A stretch of 64,000 bases of DNA from assembly GCA_045563055.1 (NCBI GenBank), contig JBJKUR010000012.1, positions 22,859-86,858 on the forward strand, written 5' to 3'. The DNA comes from Alphaproteobacteria bacterium (GTDB lineage Bacteria > Pseudomonadota > Alphaproteobacteria > Methylaequorales > Methylaequoraceae). The notes under the pieces were generated by a model. It searched no databases. It saw nothing but the letters and a program-made list of their open reading frames with translations, and was not told the DNA's origin. The position numbers and the translations under genes are program-made. This document shows positions 2,019-47,496 of this stretch, one piece after another (the stretch's first letter is position 1; each line of letters begins with the position of its first letter).

Positions 2019-2270
2019 TTACTCTATTCTCTTTATTATGTCTGATTGCAGAATAGGTGACAATTGAAAATTTTCTTCATTAATTTTTTTTAATTGCTGT
2101 GGCCTTGTCGAATACGAGATATCTGCTTGTTTCTTTTCTATTTTCTCATGCACCTCATTTATTTGAGATTTTATTATCTTCAATTTTCCTTCTTGATTGG
2201 CTACAATCAATTTTATGGATATTGTCAAGAGAATCGCTCCAAATATTATTAAAAAACTTAAAAACTTCAT
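2019..2270 (-). CDS. ftsL: Cell division protein FtsL
   Basis: It is an 83-aa bitopic protein with an N-terminal TM helix and a coiled-coil region. It sits between rsmH and ftsI, and its start forms an ATGA overlap with the rsmH stop. Confidence 0.6.
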   Translation of the reverse strand: MKFLSFLIIFGAILLTISIKLIVANQEGKLKIIKSQINEVHEKIEKKQADISYSTRPQQLKKINEENFQLSPILQSDIIKRIE

Positions 2271-3163
2271 ATCTTTTCAGCAACCCTTAATTTAGCTGAC
2301 CTAGAGCTTGGGTTTTCTTTGATTTCTTGAGAAGACGGAGTCACGGGCTTTTTGGTAATCAATTTTAACCCATACTTTTGAGAGTTATCTTTCTTTTGAT
2401 TAGTCCTAAAAAAATTTTTAATTATCTTATCTTCAAGAGAATGAAATGCTAAAATTACAATTCTAGAGTTAGAGTTTAATATTCTCATGCTTAATTCTAG
2501 AATTTTTTCCAGTTCATCCAGCTCATCATTAACAAATATTCGCAACGCTTGGAAAACACGAGTGCTTGGATTTTTAAATTTACTTTTATTAATTTTTGAA
2601 ATAATTTCTGAAAGTATTTTTGTAGTATTTATTCTTTTTCTTTCTCTAAACTTTATAATTGATCTTGCAATTCTTCTGGAGTTTCTTTCTTCTCCATAGT
2701 AGAAAAAAATATTGGCTAATTCCTTTTCACTGTATTCGTTTATAACTATTTCAGCGGTAAGGTTGGTTTTATGTTGATCCATTCTCATGTCAAGAGGACC
2801 GTCGTTTGAAAAAGAAAAACCACGCATTGGATTTTTTAATTGAGTATTTGATATTCCTAGGTCAATTACTATACCGTCAAAAAAACTTACACCTTTCTTG
2901 GATAAAACGCTTTCCAAGGTACTAAACTTTTCGTTTTCAAAGTTAAATCTAGATCCATATTTCTTTTTCAAAACATCTGCAAATCCTATCGATTCCTTGT
3001 CTCTATCCAATGCAAAAACATTGCAGTTTGATTCCTCTAATATTTTTTTTGAGTAACCACCTTGACCAAATGTACAATCTAAAAGATTTTTTTTTTTTTT
3101 TAAATTAAGAAAAGAAACAACCTCGTTTACCATTACAGGTACATGCGATAAATCGCTATTCAT
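2267..3163 (-). CDS. rsmH: 16S rRNA (cytosine1402-N4)-methyltransferase RsmH/MraW
   Basis: The hallmarks of the MraW family are present: HVPVM, DCTFGQGGYS, DLGISN and FHSLEDK. Confidence 0.9.
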   Translation of the reverse strand: MNSDLSHVPVMVNEVVSFLNLKKKKNLLDCTFGQGGYSKKILEESNCNVFALDRDKESIGFADVLKKKYGSRFNFENEKFSTLESVLSKKGVSFFDGIVIDLGISNTQLKNPMRGFSFSNDGPLDMRMDQHKTNLTAEIVINEYSEKELANIFFYYGEERNSRRIARSIIKFRERKRINTTKILSEIISKINKSKFKNPSTRVFQALRIFVNDELDELEKILELSMRILNSNSRIVILAFHSLEDKIIKNFFRTNQKKDNSQKYGLKLITKKPVTPSSQEIKENPSSRSAKLRVAEKI

Positions 3164-3164
3164 A

Positions 3165-4667
3165 TTAGTTAGCTTGTCTTCTTAAGAAGGCAGGTATTTG
3201 AAGTAGATCTTCATTAACTTCACTTGTTTGATCACTAGTTTCATCATCTATTGAGTTAGACAGATGAGTTTCTTGAGCAGCTCTAAAACTCTCATCTTCT
3301 ATAACAATCTTATCTTCTTTATTGTTATTTATATCTGATATTTCCTGAATTTCGTTAAGAAATATTTTTTTACTTTCTACTTCCTGTTCAGTAGTATTAG
3401 ATTGATTATCTTTATTTCCATAGCTTTTTTCTTTGTCTTTTAGTCCAAAAATCCTTCCGAAAAGAGATTTTTTTACAGTTTTATTATTTTCTGGATGTTG
3501 ATCTTTGAGTATTTTGTCTTCTTCTAAAAGATTGGCCTCAGAACTAGTTTTTAATGGTTGACGTAAATCTACAAGGAAACTTGGTTGATCCTCGTTTGTC
3601 TTTAACTCATTCTGAGTTGAAGATAAATTTTGATTGCCTTCATCGGGTTGAATGACGGTTGATATTCTCTCATTATTTATAATATTCTGATGGTAATTTT
3701 CAGAATCTATCCCTGTCGAAATGACAGAAATTTTAAACTTCCCATTATAACTATCATCTTTTTGCAGGCCCCAAATAATATTTGCATTTTCATCTGCTTC
3801 TTCTCTAATTTTATTATTTGCTAAGTCAATATCTTGTAATGTAGTGTCATTACCGCAAGTAATATTTATTAGTACTCCCTTAGCTCCAGACATTGAATTA
3901 TTTTCAAGTAGAGGGTTGGAAATAGCTTTTTCAGTTGCTTCATTAACCCTATCTTCTCCTTCAGATATTCCTGTGCCAAGGTGTACTTTTCCAGTTTCAC
4001 TCATCACACTTTTAACATCAGCAAAGTCATGGTTCATTATTCCAGGTTTGACCATTAAATCTATTATGCTGCTAACACCGTCTATTAAAACATCATTTGC
4101 TAATTGCAATGAATCAGTTACTGGGGTGTCAGGTTTTGCAACGGCAAATATATTCTGGTTTGGTATCACTATTAGATTGTCAACAAATTTTTGTAGTTCT
4201 GTTACACCTTTCTCTGCTTTTTCAATTTTCCTTTTTCCTTCCATTTGGAATGGTTTTGTAACAACACCCACTGTTAAAATATTTTTTTCTTTAGCAATCT
4301 TAGCTATAACTGGTGTGGCACCTGTACCTGTTCCTCCTCCCATGCCAGCAGTCAGGAAAACCATATTTGCATTTTCAATGTATTCTTCAATTTCTTCTAA
4401 GACTTCTTCTGCCGCCTTTTTGCCCATATCTGGGTCTCCACCAGCACCTAAACCTTGAGTACAAGAGGGACCTAATTGTAGAGTTTTTTCAACTTTGGAA
4501 TGTTTTAATTGCTGACTGTCGGTATTAACGTTTAAGAAGTCTACACCTTCGATTCCTGAGTTAATCATACTGTTAATAATATTACCGCCTGTTCCGCCTA
4601 TCCCTATTACTAAGATTCTAGGCGAGAGATTATTACTTTGAGAGGGCATTTTTAGATGAAGGGTCAT
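3165..4667 (-). CDS. ftsZ: Cell division GTPase FtsZ with a long disordered C-terminal linker
   Basis: It carries the tubulin signature GGGTGTG, the motifs VIGIGGTGGN and NTDSQ, and the conserved C-terminal peptide DLLQIPAFLRRQ. Confidence 0.95.
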   Translation of the reverse strand: MTLHLKMPSQSNNLSPRILVIGIGGTGGNIINSMINSGIEGVDFLNVNTDSQQLKHSKVEKTLQLGPSCTQGLGAGGDPDMGKKAAEEVLEEIEEYIENANMVFLTAGMGGGTGTGATPVIAKIAKEKNILTVGVVTKPFQMEGKRKIEKAEKGVTELQKFVDNLIVIPNQNIFAVAKPDTPVTDSLQLANDVLIDGVSSIIDLMVKPGIMNHDFADVKSVMSETGKVHLGTGISEGEDRVNEATEKAISNPLLENNSMSGAKGVLINITCGNDTTLQDIDLANNKIREEADENANIIWGLQKDDSYNGKFKISVISTGIDSENYHQNIINNERISTVIQPDEGNQNLSSTQNELKTNEDQPSFLVDLRQPLKTSSEANLLEEDKILKDQHPENNKTVKKSLFGRIFGLKDKEKSYGNKDNQSNTTEQEVESKKIFLNEIQEISDINNNKEDKIVIEDESFRAAQETHLSNSIDDETSDQTSEVNEDLLQIPAFLRRQAN

Positions 4668-4678
4668 ATTGTCTCCTT

Positions 4679-5137
4679 TTAATATCCTTTAGGAATTGGT
4701 TTAAGTCTTGGGTTGAGGTTGTTTTTATTGGCTATTTTAATTGTCTCCTGTTTTTTCTTGTCATAGCATTTCGGATTCCACATTTGAAAAGTTGGCCCTA
4801 ATCCCACAAACAAAACTTCATTTTTAATTTCAGCATGTTTTATTAAATTTTTTGGTAAAATAATCCTGCCTTCCTTATCAAATGCAAGTTTTTCTGCTTC
4901 TCCAAAATATAATGAAATAAGGTCAAACTCATCTTGAGTATAATTTTCACTTCTATCTAAACTTTCTGATATGTTTTCCATTCTATCAATACCACAGGCA
5001 TCAATTGATTTATTATTATAAGAGGGAAAGGCTATAAGACCATTAAATGTTTGCTTGCTGAGATTGCTTCTAAAAGAAGATGGAACAGAAACTCTGCATT
5101 TAGCATCCATTTTATTTATAGTTGTAGACAAAAACAT
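4679..5137 (-). CDS. mraZ: Transcriptional regulator MraZ
   Basis: It has two MraZ half-repeats, MDAKCRVSVPSSFR and FDKEGRIILPKNL. It is the first gene of the dcw-like operon. Confidence 0.85.
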   Translation of the reverse strand: MFLSTTINKMDAKCRVSVPSSFRSNLSKQTFNGLIAFPSYNNKSIDACGIDRMENISESLDRSENYTQDEFDLISLYFGEAEKLAFDKEGRIILPKNLIKHAEIKNEVLFVGLGPTFQMWNPKCYDKKKQETIKIANKNNLNPRLKPIPKGY

Positions 5138-6921: not shown

Positions 6922-8597
6922 TAAAAAAAATTCTGAAGTTTACTTTTTTTCTAACGGCTTCACTTATTTTAGTCTTAACACTTTCCCCTTTAATTCTTTT
7001 TGATAAGAAAGATGTAGTTAAGATAATAAATCAAAAGGTTAATGAGGAATTTAATTTAAATCTAAAATTTAATGAAGATATAAAAATTAATGTCTTTCCA
7101 TTTCCTAAAATAAAAATTTTAGATGTAAATTTCATAGATAAATCACTTGGTATTGAAGTTAAGTCAGAAAGTGTAAAGTTATCATCTAATTGGAGGACTC
7201 TTCTTAAACTAAAGCCTGAAATAGAAACTATTCAAATAAATAAACCTGAAATCTTTCTTACAAAAAAAAAATCTATATCTAAGCTAACATTAGTTAAAAA
7301 TGAAACTAGAAAGATAAAGATAGAAATATTTCAAAACCTTCTAGAAAAGTTTAAAAATATTAAAATCACAAATGGGAAAGTATTTTTTTTTATCTCTGGT
7401 GATAAAAATGAGCTTGATAATTTAAATTTTTCTGTTTCAAGTGAGGATGAAATTAAGGCTGAGCTAGAGTTCAACCATGTAAAATATAATTCCCTGATCA
7501 AAATTGATGCTAGTTCTAGAGAATTAAAAAAAATCGAATACAATATAAATCAACTTTTTAGTAATAGTAATGAAATATTTGGGTCAGGAATTTTAAATGT
7601 TAAAAACGATCAATTCTTTGTAAATGGAAACTTTAATAGCCAAAAGATTGATGTAAAACAGATTTTCGAGTTAGTTTCTCAACTGAATTTTTATGATAAA
7701 AAAAAAACTCAATTAGTGAGCACTAAAATTCCATCTCTGAACTTCGACTTTAATGTGGAGTTAGCTAATGTATCGTACAATAAATTAAAATTTAAAGATG
7801 TATCATCCAATATTTTAAAAAAAAGTAATGCGATATTTATCAAGGATTTAAGACTTAAATACCTAAAGTCGATGATGAAACTTGATGGAATATATTCTTA
7901 CAGCAACAAGAATTTCAATGGTGATTTAGCAATATATGATTTTTTTTATGAATCTCCAAAAATGGAATCTGATAAAATTTACCTTACCGATGCTTACTTT
8001 GACTGTGATGTTAAATTTAGTTTTACTAATTTAGCAAATCTTCAAAATATTTTGATCAACACTAAAGCCAAAGGCGAGTGTATAAACCAAAAATCCAGAT
8101 TAATAGGTGTGGATATTTCTGATTTAGTGAAGAGGGCAGATAATATTGAAACTTTCCAAGATTTCTTCAGTTTATTTAATAAAAATAAAATCAAAGGTTC
8201 ATCTGACATAGATTCGATCTCTTTAAATTTTAGATTAAATAAAGGAATTTTTACTCTCGATAATCTTCAAGCCGAGCAGAAAAATATGAGAATAAAATCA
8301 AAAGGTAACTACTCACTTTATAATGAAAAATTTAAAATTGACAATTCAGTTTATATCAGAACGAAAAAATTTAAAAACCTTCCTGAGTTTAATATTATAA
8401 TGAACGGCAATCCTGAGGATTATAATATTTCTTACGACTTTGAAAAAGTTAAAGACGCTTTACTCTCAGATGGTATAAATTCAATCTTAAAAAAAAAGAA
8501 AAAATTGACTTTGGATCCAAGTTCTTTGCAGAAAATAATAAAAAAAAAATCGAAGGAAATTGTGCCTGAAGATATTCTTGATCTATTTTTAGATTAA
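6918..8597 (+). CDS. AsmA-family outer-membrane biogenesis protein
   Basis: It has an N-terminal anchor followed by a long, repetitive, beta-rich region rich in N and K, which resembles an AsmA N-terminus. Its GTG start overlaps the upstream stop. Confidence 0.55.
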   Translation: MIKKILKFTFFLTASLILVLTLSPLILFDKKDVVKIINQKVNEEFNLNLKFNEDIKINVFPFPKIKILDVNFIDKSLGIEVKSESVKLSSNWRTLLKLKPEIETIQINKPEIFLTKKKSISKLTLVKNETRKIKIEIFQNLLEKFKNIKITNGKVFFFISGDKNELDNLNFSVSSEDEIKAELEFNHVKYNSLIKIDASSRELKKIEYNINQLFSNSNEIFGSGILNVKNDQFFVNGNFNSQKIDVKQIFELVSQLNFYDKKKTQLVSTKIPSLNFDFNVELANVSYNKLKFKDVSSNILKKSNAIFIKDLRLKYLKSMMKLDGIYSYSNKNFNGDLAIYDFFYESPKMESDKIYLTDAYFDCDVKFSFTNLANLQNILINTKAKGECINQKSRLIGVDISDLVKRADNIETFQDFFSLFNKNKIKGSSDIDSISLNFRLNKGIFTLDNLQAEQKNMRIKSKGNYSLYNEKFKIDNSVYIRTKKFKNLPEFNIIMNGNPEDYNISYDFEKVKDALLSDGINSILKKKKKLTLDPSSLQKIIKKKSKEIVPEDILDLFLD

Positions 8598-12559: not shown

Positions 12560-14803
12560 ATGTCAAGGTTAACATTCATTGCCGGCGCTTTAATAGCTGG
12601 GAATTCTTTTGCACAGGATAACACTTATGTTGCTCCTGATGTAAATATCTTTGAATCACCAGAACAGGTTTTTGAATTACCGGGTTCTGGTGATTACATA
12701 GGTCCAGAGGAAATAAGAAAATATAACTTTAATAATATTAATGAGATCCTGAGAAATACGACAGGCGTTTACTCAAGAGAAGAAGATGGTTTAGGGATAT
12801 TCCCTAATATAAGTTTAAGGGGTGTTAATACGCTAAGATCTGCTCAGGTAAATATTATGGAAGACGAGATCAATATCATGCCAGCCCCATATTCAGCGCC
12901 AGATGCTTATTACTTTCCTATTCCAGGTAAAATGAACTCTATAGAAGTTTTAAAAGGAACAAGCCAATATAGATATGGACCTCACTCAACTGGTGGTGCA
13001 ATGAATTTTGTTACAACACCTATTGATTTTGGTCAGCGATATCATGGAAGTGTGTCTTATGGTTCAGGTAATGACATTATTACCCAAGATTATTTCAATT
13101 ATGGTATTTCAGGAAGATACGGTGCTTTAGCAATTTTAGGTGAAATGTATTATCGTAATAGTGGGGGTAATCAGAAAGAATTCAACCTCGAGCCTCCTGC
13201 AAGTTCACAACACAGAAAAGGTTATGATAGTGATGAGCTTGGTGGGATAAATCAAATTGCTCCAATGGTTAAGTTATTATGGCAACTTCCAACAACAAAA
13301 AATATTACCCTAGAACTTAAAGGTTCATACAATGATATGAATTATAATGAGGGTTACGCTGGATTAACCACAGCAGATTTTAATGTTAATCCTGACCAAA
13401 CGTACGTTGCACACCAACTCGACGAAATGAACTCTGAACAACAAACCTATTATGCAAAATTAAGAGCTGAATTAAATTCAAATATAACTAACAACTTAAC
13501 TGTATTTGCTAATCGTTTTACAAGAGATTGGTTCAAGCTAGCAGATGCTAATGGTGATTCTCTCACATCTATTATGTCTAAAGCTGGAAGTGCTGCTTCA
13601 TTAAATATTGTAAAGGGACTAGCAGCAGGTACTGTTAGATACGTAAACAATGATAGGCAATACACTTCATACGGTCTTAATAATGAAACAGAATTTAACT
13701 TTAATACAGATTATTTTGGAAAAAATATAAAGCATAATTTAAAAGTTGGATATGGTTACCATTATGATTACATAAATAGAGATCAACAACGTCATGCTTT
13801 TACTCAAGCAGTAGGGGGAGCTTTGACAGCAACTGGTGTGACTTACAAAGATGATAGACATGAAAAAGCAAAAGGTCATTCTGGTTACATAGAAGAATCA
13901 GCAACTATCAATAATTTTGTTGTTTCGTTAGGTGGTAGGTTTGAATATGTTGACTACCACTATAGAGATAAAGCCGGTGCTCAAAACTCAACCAGTAACA
14001 TGCATGAAGATATGTTTGCTTTTGCTCCAGGTGGTGGTTTAGTTTATAATCATGACGATAATTGGCAATGGTTTGGTGGGGTATATAAAGGATTTAACCT
14101 TCCAGGGCCTGGTTCAGCTAGAGATAATGGTAACCCCGTGGAAAAAGAAACAAGTATAGCTAAAGAAATCGGTGTAAGATACGCCTCTCCGACATTATTT
14201 TTATCTTGGACTGGTTTCCATACAGACTTTAAAGATCTAATAGTTCTTGATAACAGTAATGCTGATAGCGAACCTGATAATGCAGGTAATGTTGTTTCAA
14301 AGGGTTTTGAACTTTCCTCAACATACGCTCCAGAGGATTTTCTTCCCTTTAAAGGAGATATTTCATTCTTTGCGAATTATACATTTACAAATGCTAACTT
14401 AGATGGTGCAGCTAGTTCAACTGATTCTGAAACAGCTTTCGCTGGCGGTAGAGACGGGTCTAATGTACCTTATATTCCTGACCATCGTCTGTCATTTGGT
14501 GCTGATTATGAGTATAATGACTTTGATTTTGGAGTAAATATGACATATCACTCAGAATCACATGGCACGGCAGATGAAAGTGAAACAGAAGAATTTAATG
14601 GTTCTGCGGACGCTAGAAACGGAAAAATTGATGATGCTTTTCTACTTAATTTTTATGCAGGCTATGACTTCATGAATAATTATAGAATCTCAGCAGGCGT
14701 AAACAATGCTACAGATTTGGAATACATTGCTTCAAGGCATCCAAATGGGGCTAGAAGAGGTGCACCACTTACTGCATATATTAAGGCGGCAGCTAATTTT
14801 TAA
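12560..14803 (+). CDS. TonB-dependent outer-membrane receptor (probable iron/siderophore type)
   Basis: It has the signal peptide MSRLTFIAGALIAGNSFA, plug-domain motifs (NINEILRNTTGVY, ISLRGV) and a long beta-barrel. The protein ends in a terminal Phe (AAANF). Fur boxes lie upstream. Confidence 0.85.
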   Translation: MSRLTFIAGALIAGNSFAQDNTYVAPDVNIFESPEQVFELPGSGDYIGPEEIRKYNFNNINEILRNTTGVYSREEDGLGIFPNISLRGVNTLRSAQVNIMEDEINIMPAPYSAPDAYYFPIPGKMNSIEVLKGTSQYRYGPHSTGGAMNFVTTPIDFGQRYHGSVSYGSGNDIITQDYFNYGISGRYGALAILGEMYYRNSGGNQKEFNLEPPASSQHRKGYDSDELGGINQIAPMVKLLWQLPTTKNITLELKGSYNDMNYNEGYAGLTTADFNVNPDQTYVAHQLDEMNSEQQTYYAKLRAELNSNITNNLTVFANRFTRDWFKLADANGDSLTSIMSKAGSAASLNIVKGLAAGTVRYVNNDRQYTSYGLNNETEFNFNTDYFGKNIKHNLKVGYGYHYDYINRDQQRHAFTQAVGGALTATGVTYKDDRHEKAKGHSGYIEESATINNFVVSLGGRFEYVDYHYRDKAGAQNSTSNMHEDMFAFAPGGGLVYNHDDNWQWFGGVYKGFNLPGPGSARDNGNPVEKETSIAKEIGVRYASPTLFLSWTGFHTDFKDLIVLDNSNADSEPDNAGNVVSKGFELSSTYAPEDFLPFKGDISFFANYTFTNANLDGAASSTDSETAFAGGRDGSNVPYIPDHRLSFGADYEYNDFDFGVNMTYHSESHGTADESETEEFNGSADARNGKIDDAFLLNFYAGYDFMNNYRISAGVNNATDLEYIASRHPNGARRGAPLTAYIKAAANF

Positions 14804-38145: not shown

Positions 38146-39201
<1,056 letters not shown>

Positions 39202-39204
39202 TCT

Positions 39205-40044
39205 ATGATATATAAGTCGTCTTTTGGAAGAGGATTTAATTCAAGTATACTTAATAGCTATATTTTGGGTTTATTAACTTATATTTTTATCTCTTTTATT
39301 TTAATTATACTTTCTTTTATTGAGAGTTCTTTCTTAACTTCTCTACGTTATAAAACGATTTCAATTAGCAAACCCTTTTTTATAATGGTCAGCAAACCTT
39401 TTAGCATGCTTAATGATTCTTTTTTATACACTCGCAATCTTAAAGATATTAAATCTATAAATAATGAACTAATAAGAGAGAATAAAACTCTAAAGAAACA
39501 ATTAAACGAATCTAATTTTTTATTACTAGAAAACCATCGACTAAAAAAACTTTTGGAAATTAAAGACATAACTTATGTGAAAAAATTGACAGCAAGAATT
39601 TTAATTGATGCCTACAAGGATAGCAATTCTGAAATCTATATCGACCTTGGAAAGAATGATGGTTTAAAGATTAATGATATTGTTTTCAATGAAAATGGTT
39701 TCATTGGAAGAATTGCTGAGCTTGGCAGTAAGTCTGCTAAAGTGTTAACTTTGTTAAATGAAAACTCTGTTATTCCTGTGACATCAATCAACACAAAAAA
39801 ATCATTTTTTGTCAAAGGAAATGGTAATAAATTAACTCTCAAGCACGTTGATAATAAGTTTAGCCTTAAACATGGAGAATTAGTTGTATCAACTAGTGCA
39901 GCTGGTTATTTTAAAGAAGGTATAAACATTGGTAGAATTTACAAAACTTTAAATGATGTTTACGTAATCCCGTTTGCAAAGAAAACGGATTCAATCTATG
40001 TTAATGTTTTGATTTATAATTTTATTAATGAATTTAATGATTAG
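39205..40044 (+). CDS. mreC: Rod-shape protein MreC
   Basis: It has an N-terminal anchor, a coiled coil (NELIRENKTLKKQLNE) and a beta-rich C-terminus. It sits after mreB. Confidence 0.8.
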   Translation: MIYKSSFGRGFNSSILNSYILGLLTYIFISFILIILSFIESSFLTSLRYKTISISKPFFIMVSKPFSMLNDSFLYTRNLKDIKSINNELIRENKTLKKQLNESNFLLLENHRLKKLLEIKDITYVKKLTARILIDAYKDSNSEIYIDLGKNDGLKINDIVFNENGFIGRIAELGSKSAKVLTLLNENSVIPVTSINTKKSFFVKGNGNKLTLKHVDNKFSLKHGELVVSTSAAGYFKEGINIGRIYKTLNDVYVIPFAKKTDSIYVNVLIYNFINEFND

Positions 40045-40055
40045 TTTTTTGTTAT

Positions 40056-40553
40056 ATGCTTGGTAATCTTTTTTTTAGAGCTGTTCCATATCTATTTATA
40101 TCTTTTTTCATTTTTTTTGAGTTCACTCCTAATTACTTATTTGATGCAAAGCTTGTCAAACCGTATATGTTTTTCATAGTTTTTTATTGCTGGTTAATAA
40201 GTGATTCAAAAAGGTTTTCTTCTTTATCTATATTTATTTTTTCTATTTTTTACGATCTTATTCAAGGTGGTGTTGTTGGGATAACATCATTATTCTTTCT
40301 ACTCATGCAATATTCTCTTAGAAAAAAATATAATGAATTAATTTCAAATGATTTAAAGGAAATTTGGGTTAAATTTATATTAAGTTTTACTCTGTACTTG
40401 TCAATAATGTTGGTTCTTAATATATTTTTGAAAAACAACGAGATAGCCTTTAAGAATGTGGCAATAAGTTTTATAATAACGATTGCTTTGTTTCCACTCT
40501 TTTTTTCAATCGTGGATAAATTAAGTTATAAATTTAAAAAATATCATGAGTAA
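40056..40553 (+). CDS. mreD: Rod-shape protein MreD
   Basis: It is a polytopic membrane protein located between mreC and mrdA. Confidence 0.6.
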   Translation: MLGNLFFRAVPYLFISFFIFFEFTPNYLFDAKLVKPYMFFIVFYCWLISDSKRFSSLSIFIFSIFYDLIQGGVVGITSLFFLLMQYSLRKKYNELISNDLKEIWVKFILSFTLYLSIMLVLNIFLKNNEIAFKNVAISFIITIALFPLFFSIVDKLSYKFKKYHE

Positions 40554-42324
40554 AGATCTAAATATAGAGAAAAAGCTAAGAAGAAGATCCCTTTTACTTG
40601 GAATTTCAAAATCTTTTTTCACTTTTTTAGTTTTTGGAAAGTTGTACTACCTTCAAATTCTTCAAAAATCAAAGTATGGAAAACTTTCTGATTTAAACAG
40701 AACTAAAATTAAAATTTTATATCCTGAAAGAGGAATAATCTTTGATCTACATGACAAGCCAATTGCATCAAATAAAGTTGATTACCAACTGAGTATTTTT
40801 AAGGAAAAAAAAAAATTAATCGGTAAATATATAAATAACCTGGATGGACACATAAATTTTAATGCTAAGGACCTATCTGAAATAAAAAAAAATCTCAAGC
40901 AACAAGATCTGTCAGACTTTGTAACCATAAAAACAGGTCTAACTTGGAATGAATTAGAGTTTTTTGAATTTATGAGAAATAAATTTCCTTTTTTGATAAT
41001 AACTAAAGAGAAAGTAAGAAATTATAATGAAAATTTAGTTTTCTCTCACGTTCTGGGTTATGTCGGGTTCAAAAAAGAAGTTAGTAAAAAACAGCTTACT
41101 AATTTAAAGTTTGGCATTTCAGGTATTGAGAAAAAACTTGATTCAAGGCTACTTGGAAAAGATGGTTGGATAAAGTTTGAGACCGATTCGCGAGGAGTTA
41201 TTAAAAAAGAATTAAATAAGAAGAACTCTTTACCAGGTAAAGATATCAAAACATTCTTAATAAGTGAAATCCAAAAGAAAGCTTTCTCTGAGATGGAAGG
41301 TATTAATGGAGCTGTAGTGATGATAAATTGTCGTGATGGGGGGGTTAATTGTTTGGTTTCCTCACCTTCTTTTGATAATAATGAATTTAGTGATGGAGTT
41401 AGTCAAAGTAAATGGAGGAAACTTTTAGAAGATCAATTCAACCCTCTTTTAAACAGATCTATTGCGGGACTATATTCCCCAGGATCAACATATAAATTAA
41501 TTAGCGCATTACATGTATTAGAAAATACTAACTTTGATAGAAAAAAAATTTTTTTTTGCAGTGGACACGTAAAATTTGGAAATAGAAAGTTTCATTGTTG
41601 GAAAAAAGAAGGACATGGTAACGTAGATCTTCATGATGCAATAAAGAAATCATGTGATTGTTATTTTTATAATTTAGCAAAAACACTAAATATCGATAGT
41701 TTAGCAAAATTTTCTAATTTATTTTCCTATGGTAAGAATACTGGTATTGACATGCTAAATGAACAAATAGGTATAATGCCTAATACAAATTGGAAAATTA
41801 ATAATCGAGGCGAGATATGGCAAAAAGGAGAAACATTAAATACCGTTATCGGGCAAGGTTTTATGTTATCAACTCCACTTCAAATAGCAGTGATGACAGC
41901 TCGCTTAGCATCTGGCTTGAAAATAATACCAAGTATTATTTATAAGAAATCAAAATTCGAAAAGTTATACGTAGACTCTAGTAATATTGAGTTTATAAAA
42001 AGAGCTATGTTTTCCGTTGTCAATGACAATACTGGAACTGCCTTTAGTTCAAGAATTTTTGGTTCAAAAAAAATGGCTGGAAAAACTGGAACATCCCAAG
42101 TAAGAAAAATAAGTTTAGAGGAAAGGGAGAGAAAGGATGGAGTTATGAAGAATGAAGATTTATTATATAAGTTACGTGACCATTCAATCTTCACTTGCTT
42201 TGCCCCTTTTGATAATCCAAAGTTTGCATTATCAGTTATTGCAGAACACATGGGTAGTGGATCAAAGGTAGCCGCCCCTATTGCTAAAAGAATAATGAAA
42301 CTAGCACTTGAAAAATATTATTGA
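40546..42324 (+). CDS. mrdA: Peptidoglycan D,D-transpeptidase MrdA (PBP2)
   Basis: It has the motifs SxxK (SPGSTYK), SxD (KSCD) and KTG (GKTGTSQ), and it precedes rodA. Confidence 0.9.
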   Translation: MSKDLNIEKKLRRRSLLLGISKSFFTFLVFGKLYYLQILQKSKYGKLSDLNRTKIKILYPERGIIFDLHDKPIASNKVDYQLSIFKEKKKLIGKYINNLDGHINFNAKDLSEIKKNLKQQDLSDFVTIKTGLTWNELEFFEFMRNKFPFLIITKEKVRNYNENLVFSHVLGYVGFKKEVSKKQLTNLKFGISGIEKKLDSRLLGKDGWIKFETDSRGVIKKELNKKNSLPGKDIKTFLISEIQKKAFSEMEGINGAVVMINCRDGGVNCLVSSPSFDNNEFSDGVSQSKWRKLLEDQFNPLLNRSIAGLYSPGSTYKLISALHVLENTNFDRKKIFFCSGHVKFGNRKFHCWKKEGHGNVDLHDAIKKSCDCYFYNLAKTLNIDSLAKFSNLFSYGKNTGIDMLNEQIGIMPNTNWKINNRGEIWQKGETLNTVIGQGFMLSTPLQIAVMTARLASGLKIIPSIIYKKSKFEKLYVDSSNIEFIKRAMFSVVNDNTGTAFSSRIFGSKKMAGKTGTSQVRKISLEERERKDGVMKNEDLLYKLRDHSIFTCFAPFDNPKFALSVIAEHMGSGSKVAAPIAKRIMKLALEKYY

Positions 42325-43418
42325 AGTACGGTATGGACTTTTATTTAAAATTAAAAAATATCAATTGGTTTTTTGTATCACTTATTTGTTTTCTATCTTT
42401 CATAGGCTTGGTAATGATTTATAGTGCAACTATTGGCGATGAGTCTAGAATTTTTTTGTCTCACATTTATAAAATTGTCTTTGGCTTAATGTTAATGTTT
42501 TTAATAAGTCTTTTAGATATAGAGTTTTGGAAAAGAAACGCATATTTATTTTATTTTTTGGGACTCATTCTTTTAATTTGGGTGTCGTTTTATGGATATT
42601 TAGGAAAAGGTGCAAGAAGATGGATAAATGTTTTTGGATTTAATTTTCAACCATCAGAAATAATGAAAATATTTATAATAATATCTCTCGCAAAATTTTT
42701 TGATGAGAAAAAAATTCAAGAACCACGAGATTATTTATTTTTAATACTTCCAATAATTTTAGTTCTAATCCCATTTTCTTTAATTCTTTCTCAGCCAGAT
42801 CTAGGAACAGCTATGTTAATATTATTTGTAAGTATAATAATTTTTTTCATTTCAGGAATAAATTGGAAGTTTTTTGCTTTTTTCGGAATATTAGGTTTGA
42901 TGGTCGCACCGTATTTGTGGGGAGCGCTTAAAGAATATCAAAAACAAAGAATATTAACGCTTTTTAACCCTGAAAATGATCCTTTAGGATCTGGATATCA
43001 TATTATTCAGTCTCAGATCGCTGTTGGTTCAGGTGGTTTTTTTGGCAAAGGTTGGTTAAAAGGAACACAGTCTCATCTTGATTTTCTTCCAGAAAAACAT
43101 ACAGATTTCATATTTTCTATGTTAGGAGAAGAATTTGGTTTTTTTGGAACATTGTCAGTAATTGGTCTGATTTGCTTGATAACATATTTGGCATATAACA
43201 TTACTGGAAGATTTATTCATGATAATTTTAATAGAACTTTAGGATATGGCATTATTTCGAATTTCTTTTTTGCATCTCTAATTAATATGTCAATGGTAAT
43301 TGGCATTCTTCCAATAGTTGGCTTGCCTTTGCCGCTAGTTTCATATGGAGGGTCCTCAATGATTACCTATTTTATTGGATTTGGTATAATTTTATCTTTA
43401 GATAGATCAAGACAGTGA
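42321..43418 (+). CDS. rodA: Peptidoglycan glycosyltransferase RodA (SEDS family)
   Basis: It shows the FtsW/RodA/SpoVE pattern (QPSE, PDLGTA, LPEKHTDFIF, PLPLVSYGGSS). Confidence 0.9.
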   Translation: MKYGMDFYLKLKNINWFFVSLICFLSFIGLVMIYSATIGDESRIFLSHIYKIVFGLMLMFLISLLDIEFWKRNAYLFYFLGLILLIWVSFYGYLGKGARRWINVFGFNFQPSEIMKIFIIISLAKFFDEKKIQEPRDYLFLILPIILVLIPFSLILSQPDLGTAMLILFVSIIIFFISGINWKFFAFFGILGLMVAPYLWGALKEYQKQRILTLFNPENDPLGSGYHIIQSQIAVGSGGFFGKGWLKGTQSHLDFLPEKHTDFIFSMLGEEFGFFGTLSVIGLICLITYLAYNITGRFIHDNFNRTLGYGIISNFFFASLINMSMVIGILPIVGLPLPLVSYGGSSMITYFIGFGIILSLDRSRQ

Positions 43419-43424
43419 AATGTT

Positions 43425-44450
43425 TTAAACCTTTTCAGATAAAAAGATAGCAACTTTTTTTAAAGATCTTATATTTCTCATAATTATAAGTAATACTACC
43501 AGAAAAGGAACACTTAGGAACATTCCTGCTACTCCCCAGATTTTACCCATAAGAGCTAAAAAGATTATCATTATTAGAGGGCTAATGTTTAATGTTTTTC
43601 CCATTAATTTTGGTTCCAAGAAGTTTCCTATAAATATTTGAATTAAAACTAGAACAATAAAAGTTGTTATTGGTTCGTAAAAATCAACGAATTGTATAAT
43701 AGAAAATAGTGAAGGCAAAACAACTGAAATAAGAGAGCCAAGAAAAGGAATAAAATTTAATAGAAAAGATAAGATTGCAAAAGAAGGAGCTAACTCATTT
43801 CCTATTATCTCTAAAGAAAGGAATGTTAGCAAGGCGGTAAAGAAGCTAGTTAAAGATTTAAGTTGAAAATAATTAAAAATATCATTGTTAATCTTTTGGA
43901 TAATGCCCATGTTCCGTTTTTCAATAATTAACTCAATTTTTTTTAGAAAATTTTTTTTTTCTGCAACAATAAATATAAAAAAAATCAAAATAAATGTAAA
44001 ATTACCTGCAAAATTTGTAAAACCGTTTAATAGTTTTGATAAAAAATTTACAAAATTAAGAGAATTTATAAATTTTTCTATAGGAACTAATTCACTGATG
44101 TGTTGTATTGAAGAAAACTCAAATATTTTTTCCAAATTTTTTTGATAAGATGAAGAGTTATCAATTACATGCAGAATGTTAAATTTAAATATGACCGAAA
44201 TTAAGTAAGAAAGAACGATAATTATAAAGAACATCAAAAGAATTGAAATTAACTCTCCTAGCTGGAATTTTAAGTATTTTTTTGTATAATATAATAATTT
44301 TGCAGATAGTGATTTAACTATTATAAAAACAAATAATGCGAGCGATAAAGGCAATAATATAAACTGTCCAAAATACATTACAAAAATGAATAAAATTAAA
44401 AGAAGTAATATTTTACCTAAATTCATTCTAGTTAAATTGATAGTTTTCAA
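43425..44450 (-). CDS. AI-2E/PerM-family transporter
   Basis: It is a polytopic protein of about 8 TM helices with the C-terminal pattern G...G...G.FL.VP typical of AI-2E transporters. Confidence 0.7.
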   Translation of the reverse strand: MKTINLTRMNLGKILLLLILFIFVMYFGQFILLPLSLALFVFIIVKSLSAKLLYYTKKYLKFQLGELISILLMFFIIIVLSYLISVIFKFNILHVIDNSSSYQKNLEKIFEFSSIQHISELVPIEKFINSLNFVNFLSKLLNGFTNFAGNFTFILIFFIFIVAEKKNFLKKIELIIEKRNMGIIQKINNDIFNYFQLKSLTSFFTALLTFLSLEIIGNELAPSFAILSFLLNFIPFLGSLISVVLPSLFSIIQFVDFYEPITTFIVLVLIQIFIGNFLEPKLMGKTLNISPLIMIIFLALMGKIWGVAGMFLSVPFLVVLLIIMRNIRSLKKVAIFLSEKV

Positions 44451-45123
44451 GAAGTTGGGTCATTTTAGTTGTTCCGAAAAGATCAGAATCTGTTTTCTCT
44501 GTTCTAATAGTTTTAACAAGTCCTATTCCCTTGGCATACCATTCATCCGATGTAATATTTATTTCAATTGAGCCTATTTCACTATCTCCAATAAATTTAG
44601 TTTTTCCTACTCCTTTTACTAAAAGGCAATCTTTAAACTTCCCCATTGGTGTGTTCACAACCTCTGTTTTAGATACAATTTCATATTCTATATCAAAGTT
44701 TGTTGTTGCCCTGTAATCATAGTAAGGGTATCTTTTTAATATCAAAAAAGTTTTGCTTTCAACTGCCCACTTTCTTCCAATTTCAAGTGGAATCGGAAGA
44801 ACCAATCTTTTTGCTTTTTCTGAACTAATTCTTTTATCTTTTGAGAAGGCAGAACCATTCCTATAGATTCCACTCTTATCAATATTATAGAGGTAAATAG
44901 AGCCATCTTCTCTTAAAAATGGATAGAAAAATGTTTTATTTCCATCTATCTCTAATTTTCTTTTTCCTAGAGCAATATTTATTTTTTTATATGTAGTTTT
45001 TTTTTCGATTTCAGGTTGTATTTCAACTTGATAGGACCAGGACTTAACTTTTTCCAATGGAAAGTATGGATTGTTCTGATTTGAACAACCGATTATGAAT
45101 AAAATAAAAAACAAGAATTTCAT
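44428..45123 (-). CDS. Lipoprotein of unknown function
   Basis: It has the lipobox FIIGC|S. Its end overlaps the start of the AI-2E gene by 23 nt. Confidence 0.5.
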   Translation of the reverse strand: MKFLFFILFIIGCSNQNNPYFPLEKVKSWSYQVEIQPEIEKKTTYKKINIALGKRKLEIDGNKTFFYPFLREDGSIYLYNIDKSGIYRNGSAFSKDKRISSEKAKRLVLPIPLEIGRKWAVESKTFLILKRYPYYDYRATTNFDIEYEIVSKTEVVNTPMGKFKDCLLVKGVGKTKFIGDSEIGSIEINITSDEWYAKGIGLVKTIRTEKTDSDLFGTTKMTQLLENYQFN

Positions 45124-45644
45124 TATTTTTCAGGTAGTAGTTGATTCGGCATATCAAAGAAATTTAATTTAGAGCTTACAGTTGAAGCTTTTTCTTTTTT
45201 TAAAACAGATGAAATTATGTTTTTTTTATTCTCATCAATATTTTCCCCCATTTGAGGTATTCCATTCTTCAAGCTAACCAAGGCCTTTGAAATTTTTTCG
45301 TGGGCTTCTTTATTATAATTTAAGCTATAAGATCTAGGTGTACTTAAACCAGCTAAATCATTCATGTCTGTTATCCACAAGTAAATATTTCCTTCAGAGT
45401 TTATCAATGCATTTGGTTCGTATATCTGAGCTGCCACCAACCTAAACCTATCAGGGAGGTCGTCATTAGATGGCCACCCTACAAGATTTTTAAATGAGTC
45501 GTATGTTAGCACACAAAATATGGTTGTTATGATTATCATCGATGATTTTATAATCCAGTGAAATGTGGTTCTAAGATTAAATAACACCAATAAGAATGCT
45601 AAGATCGCATAGCATATAATAATAAAAAAAATTACTGAATTCAT
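45123..45644 (-). CDS. Membrane protein of unknown function
   Basis: It has two N-terminal TM helices and a soluble domain. It overlaps the lipoprotein gene start by 1 nt. Confidence 0.4.
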   Translation of the reverse strand: MNSVIFFIIICYAILAFLLVLFNLRTTFHWIIKSSMIIITTIFCVLTYDSFKNLVGWPSNDDLPDRFRLVAAQIYEPNALINSEGNIYLWITDMNDLAGLSTPRSYSLNYNKEAHEKISKALVSLKNGIPQMGENIDENKKNIISSVLKKEKASTVSSKLNFFDMPNQLLPEK

Positions 45645-45657
45645 ATTTTACCTTTCT

Positions 45658-46254
45658 TTAATTTTCCGGAACTAGTTTTTTAAATAAGTTACCAGAAACA
45701 CTTACAATACCGTTCTGAGTTATATTAAATCTTGTGGCAGTTTTTTCTACACCTTTTTTTTCCAATTTAATAGTTCCGTAATAAATTACTTCGAGTTTTG
45801 GATTAACTTTTTCAACTTTTACGTTAACATCAATTGGTTGTTCAGTTTTAGTGGCATAGTAATGTACATTTACAATGTATTCTCCTGGGACAACAGCACG
45901 AATAGTTACTACCTCTTGGTTAAGAGGATTTTGAATTTTTTCACCACCAACTTCAATAGTATCATTTAATAGTCCACGATCATCTCTATCTAAATGAACG
46001 AAACCAGCTTCTTTTCCTCTAAACCATACCAGATCACCGGTTGGGCTTTGGACATACGTATCAATATCATCAGGATTATTATCTTTCCAGCTGACTGTTA
46101 TTATGTACTCTGCCTTAGGATTAATCACTCCTGTCTTAGGTATAGGATTCATGAAAATAATTGCTAAAAACATGAGAAGTGTAAATGATAAGAGAATATT
46201 GAAAAGTAAATCAGTGAAAGGATCTGCCCTTAGTCTTCTACCTGAATATGACAT
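45658..46254 (-). CDS. ExbD/TolR-like anchored protein with a divergent beta-rich periplasmic domain
   Basis: The N-terminus RRLRADPFTDLLFNILLSFTLLMFLAIIF has an Asp at the start of a single TM helix, as in ExbD/TolR. It directly follows the MotA/ExbB-like gene with a 1-nt overlap. The C-terminal domain is not ExbD-like. Confidence 0.4.
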   Translation of the reverse strand: MSYSGRRLRADPFTDLLFNILLSFTLLMFLAIIFMNPIPKTGVINPKAEYIITVSWKDNNPDDIDTYVQSPTGDLVWFRGKEAGFVHLDRDDRGLLNDTIEVGGEKIQNPLNQEVVTIRAVVPGEYIVNVHYYATKTEQPIDVNVKVEKVNPKLEVIYYGTIKLEKKGVEKTATRFNITQNGIVSVSGNLFKKLVPEN

Positions 46255-46964
46255 TATAAACTATTATCGATACTAACTTCTGAAATTTGATTTAAAACTG
46301 AAAATAGTTCCTCACATCCACTTTCAAGATTATAATATTGAATTGCAACCATAACACCAGCAACAAGTGCTGATAGGGTTGTATAAAGAGCAACCCCCAT
46401 TCCACTTCCCATGGTTGTTAAAACGCCTTGCAATAAGGTGACATCAAAAGTTGTTATGTCTGAAAGAGAACCTAACATTATTATAAAACCAATTACTGTG
46501 CCGATTAATCCTAACTTAAGCATTATGTCGGAACAAAACCAACCAAATTCATAGAAACCAACTGTCTTTTTTACGTAGCTATCAAGTATCTGAACATGAG
46601 AAGTCGCACCATTTTTCTTCAAACCAATTAAATCTTTAAAATATTCACTGACAATCCCATCTGAAATTTCTCCCTTTGAAGTTAAAATTAGTGACCCTTC
46701 GATTATTCTGAGTTTAATATTTTCGTCAAGAAGACTTTTTTTAATAACATGAGCTTTATTCAATTCACCTGAAATCAAGAAGGTATGATAAAAACAATGC
46801 ATGCTAATTACTATGAAAGAAACTAGAATTAAACTAGTTATGTAGCTTTTATCTGAGCTTACTATTTTATAAATCAGGCCTTGATCGAAAATAAAAAAAA
46901 TAAAAAAGGTAATTATACTAAATTGTAATAACCACTTTAAAAATAATTTGTGTACTCTAGTCAT
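46254..46964 (-). CDS. MotA/TolQ/ExbB-family proton channel protein
   Basis: The C-terminal helices carry LGLIGTVIGFI...MGVALYTTLSALVAG, typical of the family. Confidence 0.75.
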   Translation of the reverse strand: MTRVHKLFLKWLLQFSIITFFIFFIFDQGLIYKIVSSDKSYITSLILVSFIVISMHCFYHTFLISGELNKAHVIKKSLLDENIKLRIIEGSLILTSKGEISDGIVSEYFKDLIGLKKNGATSHVQILDSYVKKTVGFYEFGWFCSDIMLKLGLIGTVIGFIIMLGSLSDITTFDVTLLQGVLTTMGSGMGVALYTTLSALVAGVMVAIQYYNLESGCEELFSVLNQISEVSIDNSL

Positions 46965-46980
46965 TCAGTTTATAAATCCT

Positions 46981-47496
46981 TTAATACTGTATTAGAGTTT
47001 CAATGGGTATTACAATGTTTTTTCTTCCACTTAAAAAATCTAATTCGATAAGTGATATGAAACATACTGGGTCTCCGCCGGATTTTTCAATTAGTTTAAT
47101 TGCAGCTTTAGCTGTCCCGCCAGTAGCTAATAGATCATCAACTAATAATATTTTTTTATTTTGTAAATTTACATTGACCTCTAGGGTGTCTTTCCCATAC
47201 TCAAGTTCATATTCAATGTGAACTTTATTATTTCCTGGTAATTTATTTTTTTTTCTAATCATTACCATGCCCTTATTTAAATCTAAAGCTAATGCTGAGG
47301 CAAAAATAAAGCCTCTAGCATCTATTCCCGCAATCAAGTCACAATCATATTTGGATGCTAAACCTGATAACTGAATGATAGATGCCTTGAATGCTAGGCT
47401 GTCAGATATCAATGTAGATACATCATAAAATAGTATACCTTTTTTTGGGAAATCTGGTACTTTGCTTATACAACGCTCGATATCTTTAATATGCAT
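46981..47496 (-). CDS. apt: Adenine phosphoribosyltransferase
   Basis: It has the PRPP-binding motif LLVDDLLATGGTA and Apt-like length and sequence. Confidence 0.9.
   Translation of the reverse strand: MHIKDIERCISKVPDFPKKGILFYDVSTLISDSLAFKASIIQLSGLASKYDCDLIAGIDARGFIFASALALDLNKGMVMIRKKNKLPGNNKVHIEYELEYGKDTLEVNVNLQNKKILLVDDLLATGGTAKAAIKLIEKSGGDPVCFISLIELDFLSGRKNIVIPIETLIQY

Follow-up and report, generated by a model that had tools for sequence, protein, structure and literature searches.

A three-gene cassette of Alphaproteobacteria, Gammaproteobacteria and phages, probably a three-component branch of the MotA/ExbB-ExbD motor superfamily

Background

The question raised by the locus described here is what kind of machine is encoded where a channel protein of the MotA/TolQ/ExbB type is coupled to an ExbD-like partner with an unfamiliar periplasmic domain and to a third membrane protein. 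The genes concerned lie on the minus strand at positions 43425-46964 of a 64,000-nucleotide stretch of DNA from an alphaproteobacterium (assembly GCA_045563055.1, contig JBJKUR010000012.1, positions 22,859 to 86,858), the whole of which is referred to below as the window. An earlier note on this DNA had described a five-gene unit encoding a non-canonical motor of MotA/ExbD type with an output in the cell envelope, and had suggested that it might also energise a TonB-dependent receptor at 12.5 kb. The first reading, of a motor with an envelope output, was reasonable. The five-gene unit and the link to the receptor did not survive comparison with other genomes, since the conserved unit consisted of three genes, designated A, B and C. 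These probably encode a self-contained inner-membrane machine, constituting a three-component branch of the MotA/ExbB-ExbD superfamily of 5:2 motors, with its output on the periplasmic side.

Conservation of the A-B-C trio

Through a combination of tblastn and the mapping of open reading frames (ORFs), 83 bacterial loci were compared. Contig ends excepted, A, B and C lay next to one another on one strand and in a constant order in all of them, with stop/start overlaps or tiny gaps between the genes. The loci came from Pelagibacter-like and other Alphaproteobacteria, including Hyphomicrobiales, from Gammaproteobacteria (Granulosicoccus, Chromatiales and Thiotrichaceae) and from one Rhodothermales metagenome-assembled genome (MAG), and many of the Proteobacteria concerned are marine or soil organisms. 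SAR11-like bacteria have kept the cassette in spite of their streamlined genomes, in at least 39 species-level representatives. This arrangement is far beyond chance. Conservation of the neighbourhood was a property of the trio and not of the five genes: the gene for an AI-2E family transporter stood beside the cassette only in close relatives of the window (loci L004-L038) and was absent from all distant loci, the synteny with an apt-like gene was confined to L004-L046, and a DUF3108-like lipoprotein gene (D) was present in 11 of the 48 loci for which neighbours were clustered, in both alpha and gamma lineages. Given that the flanking genes varied, the A-B-C trio was taken as the functional unit.

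The branch is widespread. A word-indexed search returned 1916 homologs of B, with about 65% identity in Gammaproteobacteria, while an exhaustive profile search produced 2088 clusters at 50% identity. All named homologs were annotated 'hypothetical protein', with one JGI entry labelled YfaP/DUF2135, and two of the three proteins are without a Pfam or NCBIfam model. B was the best conserved of the three, its identity to distant homologs being 49-67%, whereas A reached 25-44% and C 26-41%.

Protein A, the channel subunit

Assignment of the first gene to the MotA/TolQ/ExbB family, as originally proposed, was supported by both family models and solved structures. The window protein matched Pfam MotA_ExbB (PF01618) with 31.4 bits (cutoff 22.9), the match being confined to the third and fourth transmembrane (TM) helices, and its homologs scored 36-38 bits; NCBIfam gave weak matches to MotP, PomA and ZorA only. 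A profile (A6) built from 25 diverse homologs, phage versions included, was then compared with the PDB, where the best match was MotA (8gqy, E = 6.5e-6), with TolQ (8odt, E = 8.6e-5), ZorA (E = 3e-3) and ExbB (E = 0.16) behind it. Judged by its sequence, A is a member of this family.

When A was aligned to TolQ with HMMER, the alignment ran from the second hydrophobic segment through to the last, such that TM2-TM4 of A corresponded to TM1-TM3 of TolQ; A therefore comprises a TolQ-like core of three helices and one extra helix at the N-terminus. G152, G155 and T156 were invariant among the 25 homologs and T196 was conserved in at least 90% of them. In the alignment with E. coli TolQ, the motif GLlGTviG of A stood opposite GLFGTVWG and AlyTTltGl stood opposite ALIATAIGL, which paired Thr156 with Thr145 of the pore-lining threonine ring of TolQ and made T196 the equivalent of TolQ T178. 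The cytoplasmic loop was about 75 aa long. An N-in topology of the MotA type is predicted, in which the N-terminus and the loop at 65-135 would be cytoplasmic, because both are basic (the positive-inside rule).

Protein B, the candidate axle

In B, a short basic N-terminus was followed by a single TM helix bearing Asp15, from which a linker of about 10 residues led to a beta-sandwich ectodomain. The conservation of B was examined in two alignments, A1 with 30 homologs and A5 with 89 more distant members. The N-terminus read RRLRADPFTD15LLFN, where F13, T14, D15, L16, L17, F18 and N19 were invariant in A1; D15 was present in at least 90% of A5, with Glu in its place in one viral contig (L100). 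The P-F-x-D of this segment corresponds to TPFID of E. coli ExbD and VPLLD of TolR. From these residues, the N-terminus of B is read as a signal-anchor of ExbD/TolR type, i.e., a single N-in helix with an Asp near its cytoplasmic end. The conservation of D15, the structural model and a Pfam scan of family members all agreed with the initial description of the second gene as an ExbD/TolR-style Asp-bearing helix joined to a different, beta-rich ectodomain.

An AlphaFold2 (AF2) model of B (predicted local distance difference test, pLDDT, 69.5) contained a helix at residues 12-35 and an all-beta sandwich at 45-187, the first strand starting at 45, with a poorly modelled loop at 80-97. Three acidic motifs were found in the ectodomain, W56..D63-x-D65, H87-L-D-R-D-D-R-G94 and N109-P-L-N-Q-E114; in A5, W56, D63, D65, D91, G94 and E114 were invariant, while D92, N112 and R119 reached at least 90%. 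Neither Pfam nor NCBIfam produced a match to B above threshold, and no OmpA-family match was obtained from either, nor any sequence match from the PDB. Against PPC (PF04151) the window protein scored 12.9 bits, below the 25.9 threshold. Among the 89 members of A5, Pfam identified PPC in eight at E <= 0.1 (best E = 6e-4), DUF2135 in three and ExbD in three (weak, best E = 5e-3), and TerD in none. A motif of the W-x-D..DxD..PG..G-x-Y-x-V kind, likened in the earlier note to a repeat from domains of unknown function, was thus present as a weak jelly-roll signature of PPC/DUF2135 type, in one domain and not as a repeat.

The best Foldseek matches for the B model were TerD-family structures (2qng, E = 2.4e-4; 2qz7, E = 1.8e-3), with TM-scores of 0.41-0.47; the other leading matches were also sandwiches, and neither ExbD nor TolR was among the top 50. 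In a search of viral models (BFVD) every protein returned was unnamed or unrelated. Homology to the TerD family (PF02342, with the Ca2+ motif GDN(R/L)TGEGDGDDE), to which the structural matches had pointed, drew no support from profile-profile comparison (given below) or from Pfam, and the similarity was kept as a fold-level resemblance. The deep B profile also approached the Ca2+-binding jelly-roll C-domain of Tk-SP subtilisin (3afg/9ues), at a sub-significant E of about 0.4; the motifs W-D..D-x-D-L-Y..D-P-x-G and G-x-W/Y-x-I-x-V were common to both. Taken together, these comparisons suggest that the ectodomain is an unclassified PPC/TerD-like sandwich with invariant acidic motifs specific to the family. 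TerD and PPC/jelly-roll, the nearest folds or signatures, are both Ca2+-binding types of sandwich, and the ectodomain is a putative Ca2+-binding module of PPC/jelly-roll kind.

Protein C, the third membrane partner

A first search with C returned close relatives only, and a profile search was used to obtain a wider set. In the resulting alignment of 26 sequences (23-40% overall identity) there were two N-terminal helices, with Y12, K33 and Y48 conserved and no His in either helix, followed by a small domain (about 56-135) marked by G56-W-P, LP..F.L, E-P, P103-R..LPY..LH and G133 (G.PQ.GE). Beyond a variable stretch, the tail ended in a conserved F-D-x-P-x-x-L-P-E-K, in which K173 was invariant and F162 and P171 were conserved in at least 90% of sequences. 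The AF2 model (pLDDT 68.7) placed the helices at 3-25 and 30-51, gave the domain a beta-beta-beta-alpha-beta order and left 138-158 disordered. The soluble part of C is most likely periplasmic, since the sole basic residues near the helices (R25 and K33) fall in the loop between them (the positive-inside rule). The end peptide, 162-173, is a putative docking motif, and tails of the form YDFP....IPK, related to this peptide, were found in the C proteins of phages. One gammaproteobacterial locus carried two consecutive C paralogues after B (L062:6606-7139 and 7224-7718).

Phages and chromids

The most unexpected element is the occurrence of minimal versions of the cassette in phages. When B was compared with GenBank phages by tblastn, 29 Rhizobium and Sinorhizobium phage records were identified, and a comparison with plasmids identified seven Azospirillum chromids. 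In Rhizobium phage RHph_N3_19 (68 kb, MN988527.1; L085:4511-5977) the trio comprised a 143-aa A-like ORF, annotated as the shorter coding sequence EVB99_065, the B-like EVB99_066 and the 154-aa C-like EVB99_067; in the unrelated 154-kb Pootjesviridae phage RHph_I1_9 (MN988532.1; L086:3426-4915) it comprised EVC04_146, 147 and 148. All six genes were annotated 'hypothetical protein'. Hidden Markov models built from the bacterial alignments detected A, B and C in both phages and in the p1 chromid of Azospirillum brasilense Sp7 (NZ_CP012915.1; L084:4258-6102), where the trio was divergent and B was about 32% identical; this bacterium is available in culture and amenable to genetics. For each Azospirillum chromid tblastn reported two places, which indicates a second copy or a paralogue.

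Two scans of IMG/VR, one with A1 as query and the other with a phage B protein, yielded 15 viral contigs (L087-L101), the largest of 230 kb. In all 15, A (145-180 aa) was followed by B and then C, and the trio was situated among phage genes such as those for gp32-type single-stranded DNA-binding protein, Hsp20 and dTMP kinase. Five phage A proteins (143-163 aa) were compared with Pfam MotA_ExbB: three passed (26.7-30.3 bits), that of RHph_I1_9 scored 22.6 against the 22.9 cutoff and that of L100 gave no match. Phage A proteins, which are taken as true members of the family, were without profile positions of about 80-140, which correspond to the cytoplasmic loop, and come close to the smallest feasible protein of the MotA/ExbB family; being so small, they are good targets for structural studies of how the core mechanism works. 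The cultured Rhizobium phages that carry the cassette are genetically manipulable. If phages do deploy an ion-driven motor during infection, this would represent a form of host takeover, or of auxiliary function, that is new.

Proposed mechanism

The pore threonines of A, the adjacent Asp-bearing helix of B, an obligatory third membrane protein and translational coupling together fit an ion-driven motor of 5:2 type. In such a motor, five A subunits would form an ion-conducting ring, with the conserved threonines carried on TM3 and TM4, and its centre would hold the Asp15-bearing helices of two B subunits, so that the flow of H+ or Na+ along the Asp/Thr pathway would rotate A around B. The cytoplasmic loop of A is short, and is deleted in phages, which argues for an output on the periplasmic or membrane side rather than in the cytoplasm. 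With a linker of about 10 residues, the head of B would rest immediately against the ring on its periplasmic face and, unlike MotB, TolR-TolA or ExbD-TonB, would be unable to span the periplasm. The conservation of B and its invariant acidic clusters would serve the binding of Ca2+, of an invariant ligand, or of both. C may be a peripheral partner or transducer, a functional analogue of TonB or TolA, and either the element that is moved or the one that couples the motor to its target; its flexible tail and end peptide could dock on the head of B, on lipoprotein D, on a Sel1-repeat protein where this is present, or on a general envelope component. The output would probably be the maintenance or manipulation of the envelope or its periplasmic face, rather than TonB-dependent uptake.

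A more specific proposal can be offered tentatively, and with somewhat less than even confidence: that A-B-C is a minimal ion-driven machine made up of a MotA/TolQ-like ring, which in phages has shrunk to hardly more than its four TM helices, an ExbD-like axle with a Ca2+-binding jelly-roll head and a two-TM adaptor with a docking peptide, and that it is a separate functional branch of the 5:2 motors, at work on the periplasmic side, that large phages have captured in order to manipulate the host envelope or its energisation during infection.

Several observations weigh against these interpretations. The contacts of A with B and with C, and the 5:2 stoichiometry, are drawn from homology. The window B had no match to Pfam ExbD/TolR (PF02472) at E up to 1, and no solved structure was matched significantly by its ectodomain, whether by sequence or by profile; when the shallow and deep B profiles (A1 and A5) were compared by hhalign with an alignment of four TerD structures, the TerD sequence having been checked against 2kxt, E was about 0.5, in the same register as the motif parallel seen by eye. 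The models of B and C were both of moderate confidence (pLDDT about 69), and the HLDRDDRG loop of B fell below 50, which makes a metal site in B a conjecture. No relative of C with a known function was identified in Pfam, NCBIfam, PADLOC or PHROG, and its best Foldseek match to the PDB had E = 0.7. The SHLS motif of TonB and TolA was absent from the helices of C, so that a transducer role is ascribed to it by analogy. Nor did any genomic neighbour point consistently to an output.

Alternative explanations

Were A and B an ordinary ExbBD or TolQR paralogue, C would be a divergent TonB or TolA, and the complex would energise an outer-membrane receptor, e.g., that at 12.5 kb, or form a Tol-Pal-like tether with D as its Pal. 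The family membership of A, the ExbD-type helix of B, the membrane anchor, periplasmic domain and flexible tail of C and the coupling of a lipoprotein gene to C are all compatible with this, and the window does encode a true TonB-dependent receptor (12560-14803), in which both the Plug and the beta-barrel domain were recognised. However, some 30 kb separate the receptor gene, on the opposite strand, from the cassette, and in other genomes the cassette had no syntenic receptor; with no TonB-like protein found, and the same cassette occurring in phages and other unrelated contexts, the idea that the cassette energises this receptor was abandoned. In keeping with the earlier note, Pfam, NCBIfam and phmmer produced no TonB, TolA, Pal, TolB, OmpA-like or flagellar component, and profile searches did not identify the set as ordinary TolQRA or ExbBD-TonB components, B failing the tests for ExbD and C those for TonB and TolA (including TonB_C). 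Provisional sequences of E. coli ExbB, ExbD and TolR, and one of TolQ that agreed with the E. coli TolQ alignment over the region shown, missed A and B at E < 10 in phmmer, and with these E. coli queries no exbB-, exbD- or tonB-like gene was detected in the window. The ectodomain of B is not of the ExbD/TolR fold and is held on a short linker, D is missing from most of the clustered loci, and the trio also occurs in large phage genomes of lytic type. An ordinary Ton or Tol paralogue is therefore considered very unlikely.

A role in conflict, as a Zorya-like, envelope-sensing defence against phages in bacteria and as superinfection exclusion or anti-defence in the phages themselves, would account for the movement of the cassette between the two, and draws on the weak relationship of A to ZorA and on the Foldseek proximity of B to TerD, the TerD operon being linked to phage inhibition. 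PADLOC, however, gave no significant match for any of the four proteins: its best was ZorA (E = 0.017), a match that extended over no more than the TM region shared with A, and it returned nothing for B, C or D. On this negative result Zorya and other defence systems were rejected. No effector such as a nuclease was present, nor ZorC, ZorD, ZorE or the long tail of ZorA, while the identity of B across classes, a stable housekeeping synteny and retention in streamlined SAR11-like genomes are atypical of defence islands, making a conflict system highly improbable. It is also unlikely, though rather less so, that A-B is a gated ion pathway or sensor, i.e., an H+ or Na+ conductance regulated by Ca2+ or a ligand, with the head of B as plug or sensor and C as regulator, which tunes the membrane potential or periplasmic ions. 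The head of B, near the membrane and with invariant acidic loops, the dispensability of the cytoplasmic domain of A in phages and the failure to find a conserved downstream effector would all suit a conductance of this kind, and a phage could plausibly gain from control of the proton motive force. Against it, conservation of the tail peptide of C suggests docking on a target over pure gating and, to our knowledge, all characterised members of the MotA/ExbB family couple ion flow to mechanical work.

Comparison with known systems

The three-component motor proposed here shares with TolQ-TolR-TolA and ExbB-ExbD-TonB the combination of a channel, an Asp-bearing axle and a further membrane-anchored periplasmic protein, translationally coupled. 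Both pore threonines of TolQ are kept in A, and B has the basic N-terminus, single helix and P-(F/L)-x-D motif of ExbD and TolR. Each component nonetheless differs from its counterpart. A has one more TM helix, at its N-terminus, and a cytoplasmic domain much shorter than that of TolQ or ExbB; the ectodomain of B is a PPC/TerD-like beta-sandwich, whereas ExbD and TolR have an alpha/beta fold; and C has two TM helices and lacks SHLS, a Pro-rich or long helical spacer and the TonB_C or TolA_C domain. There was no Pal or TolB and no linked receptor. With MotAB and PomAB the cassette shares a four-TM, N-in channel protein, whose profile had its best PDB match in MotA, and an Asp-bearing helix in B, but A is without the torque-generating cytoplasmic domain and B without the plug, linker and OmpA-like peptidoglycan-binding domain; flagellar genes were not nearby, and the cassette occurs in phages. 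Zorya is comparable in that ZorA is a distant MotA/ExbB-family relative of A and in the link to phage biology; it differs through the ZorA tail, the peptidoglycan-binding domain of ZorB and ZorC/D/E, all of which the cassette lacks.

The head of B resembles the PPC and Tk-SP jelly-rolls in possessing W-x-D..D-x-D-L-(W/Y)-V..D-P-x-G and P-G-x-Y-x-V-x-V, and resembles TerD in its best Foldseek matches. It differs in that no match was significant at the level of sequence or profile, and in that HLDRDDRG and NPLNQE are specific to the B family. Neither PPC nor TerD is known to occur in fusion with an ExbD-type helix. As far as is known, each new branch of this motor superfamily has so far revealed a new cellular function.

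TolQ-like motors with TM-anchored vWA proteins, found through synteny and of unknown function, have been proposed in a recent paper (Mol Biol Evol 2025, PMC12204202). They too combine the channel with an Asp-bearing partner whose ectodomain is not that of ExbD, but the vWA protein itself supplies the trans-pore helix and there is no ExbD-like gene. The present loci encode B as a jelly-roll protein in its own right (about 200 aa) and have C as an obligatory third gene, and a vWA neighbour is seen in only a few lineages, although some gamma loci do have a VWA-FHA protein or a MoxR-DUF58-BatA operon immediately after A-B-C. The TolQ-like/vWA pairing is the nearest published concept, with a different architecture. 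A 2025 survey of MotAB homologs (PMC12505986) makes no mention of a beta-sandwich, jelly-roll or Pelagibacter, and the uses of 'phage' examined in it refer to Zorya defence. A full-text literature search found no description of the A-B-C family or of phage-encoded MotA/ExbB homologs, and the cassette has apparently not been described before.

Layout of the locus and neighbouring genes

The coordinates of all features are given in Table 1. The five minus-strand ORFs of the original description were present, as were the overlaps at 46254 (A/B) and 45123 (C/D), each being a TAATG stop/start overlap in the raw sequence, and the 13-nt spacer between B and C, with AAAGG just before it. The 23-nt overlap between the AI-2E gene and D was not sustained, because it requires a TTG start at 44450; an alternative ATG at 44426 (MNLGK...) leaves a 1-nt spacer after the stop codon of D. 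The start is probably the ATG, in which case the overlap disappears. Furthermore, the apt-like gene lies on the same strand only 16 nt upstream of A, so the co-oriented run numbers six genes and not five. A scan of the operon for promoters and terminators produced counts that were not above those of shuffled controls in this AT-rich DNA; the G+C content of the window is approximately 30%, and it is most closely related to MAGs and single-cell genomes of marine 'Pelagibacteraceae/Rickettsiales'.

Table 1. Positions of the cassette, its motifs and its neighbours in the window.
Feature	Position	Strand	Basis
A: 236-aa channel subunit of the MotA/TolQ/ExbB family, 4 predicted TM	46254..46964	-	Pfam, profile, synteny
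A Thr156 codon (G-L-x-G-T motif, TM3)	46497..46499	-	Conservation and TolQ alignment
B: 198-aa ExbD/TolR-like candidate axle subunit	45658..46254	-	Alignments A1/A5, AF2 model
B TM helix, residues 12-35, D-P-F-T-D15-L-L-F-N; Asp15 codon 46210-46212	46150..46221	-	AF2, alignments
B predicted periplasmic beta-sandwich, residues 45-187	45694..46122	-	AF2 model
B motif H87-L-D-R-D-D-R-G94	45973-45996	-	Alignment
C: 173-aa third subunit	45123..45644	-	Alignments A2/A3, AF2, synteny
C two-TM hairpin, residues 3-51	45492-45638	-	AF2, alignment
C extreme C-terminal peptide F162-F-D-M-P-N-Q-L-L-P-E-K173	45126..45161	-	Conservation
D: 231-aa DUF3108-like lipoprotein; Cys13 codon 45085-45087	44428..45123	-	Lipobox, Pfam
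AI-2E family transporter, 341 aa, neighbour outside the conserved cassette	43425..44450	-	Pfam
apt-like phosphoribosyltransferase, neighbour	46981..47496	-	Pfam Pribosyltran

D carried a lipobox (IIGC, with Cys13) and matched DUF3108_like with 28.4 bits (cutoff 27), while its homolog from locus L069 scored 37.1 bits. It was absent from phage loci and most gamma loci, and is an accessory component that varies by lineage. The AI-2E transporter matched PF01594 with 132 bits.

The most frequent neighbour among the 48 clustered loci was a Sel1-repeat protein of about 174 aa, encoded directly upstream of A in 13; YkuD was present in 10, DUF302 in six and a VWA-FHA protein in four. The Sel1-repeat gene (about 170 aa) immediately preceded A, often with a 4-nt overlap, at L054:4718-5242, L065:4750-5274 and L083:4740-5249, as well as at 10 other gamma and alpha loci, and its product may be a fourth subunit, alternating with lipoprotein D. 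Directly downstream of C, a Granulosicoccus MAG carried an operon of vWA type, MoxR-DUF58-unknown-BatA/VWA (L083:7271-11077), and at two further loci (L001:9180-10697 and L044:7005-8669) the gene after C encoded a protein of about 505-554 aa that had a VWA domain in its N-terminal part and an FHA domain in its C-terminal part. A YkuD L,D-transpeptidase gene was found ahead of A in several Gammaproteobacteria. Housekeeping synteny was with tilS-accA-dnaE in gamma lineages and with apt in SAR11-like genomes.

On the other side of the AI-2E gene, 7 nt from its 3' end, a complete elongasome operon, mreB-mreC-mreD-PBP2(mrdA)-rodA, ended; it occupied 38158-43418 on the plus strand and was convergent with the cassette. 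A functional link to this cluster or to YkuD was considered and left unproven, the cluster being convergent and the synteny specific to lineages. Genes of cell division were also identified by Pfam at 330-5137 on the minus strand, comprising mraZ (4679-5137), ftsZ (3165-4667), rsmH/mraW (2267-3163) and an ftsI-like PBP (330-2018). Their order was unusual, in that ftsZ stood between mraZ and rsmH and not at the distal end of the dcw cluster.

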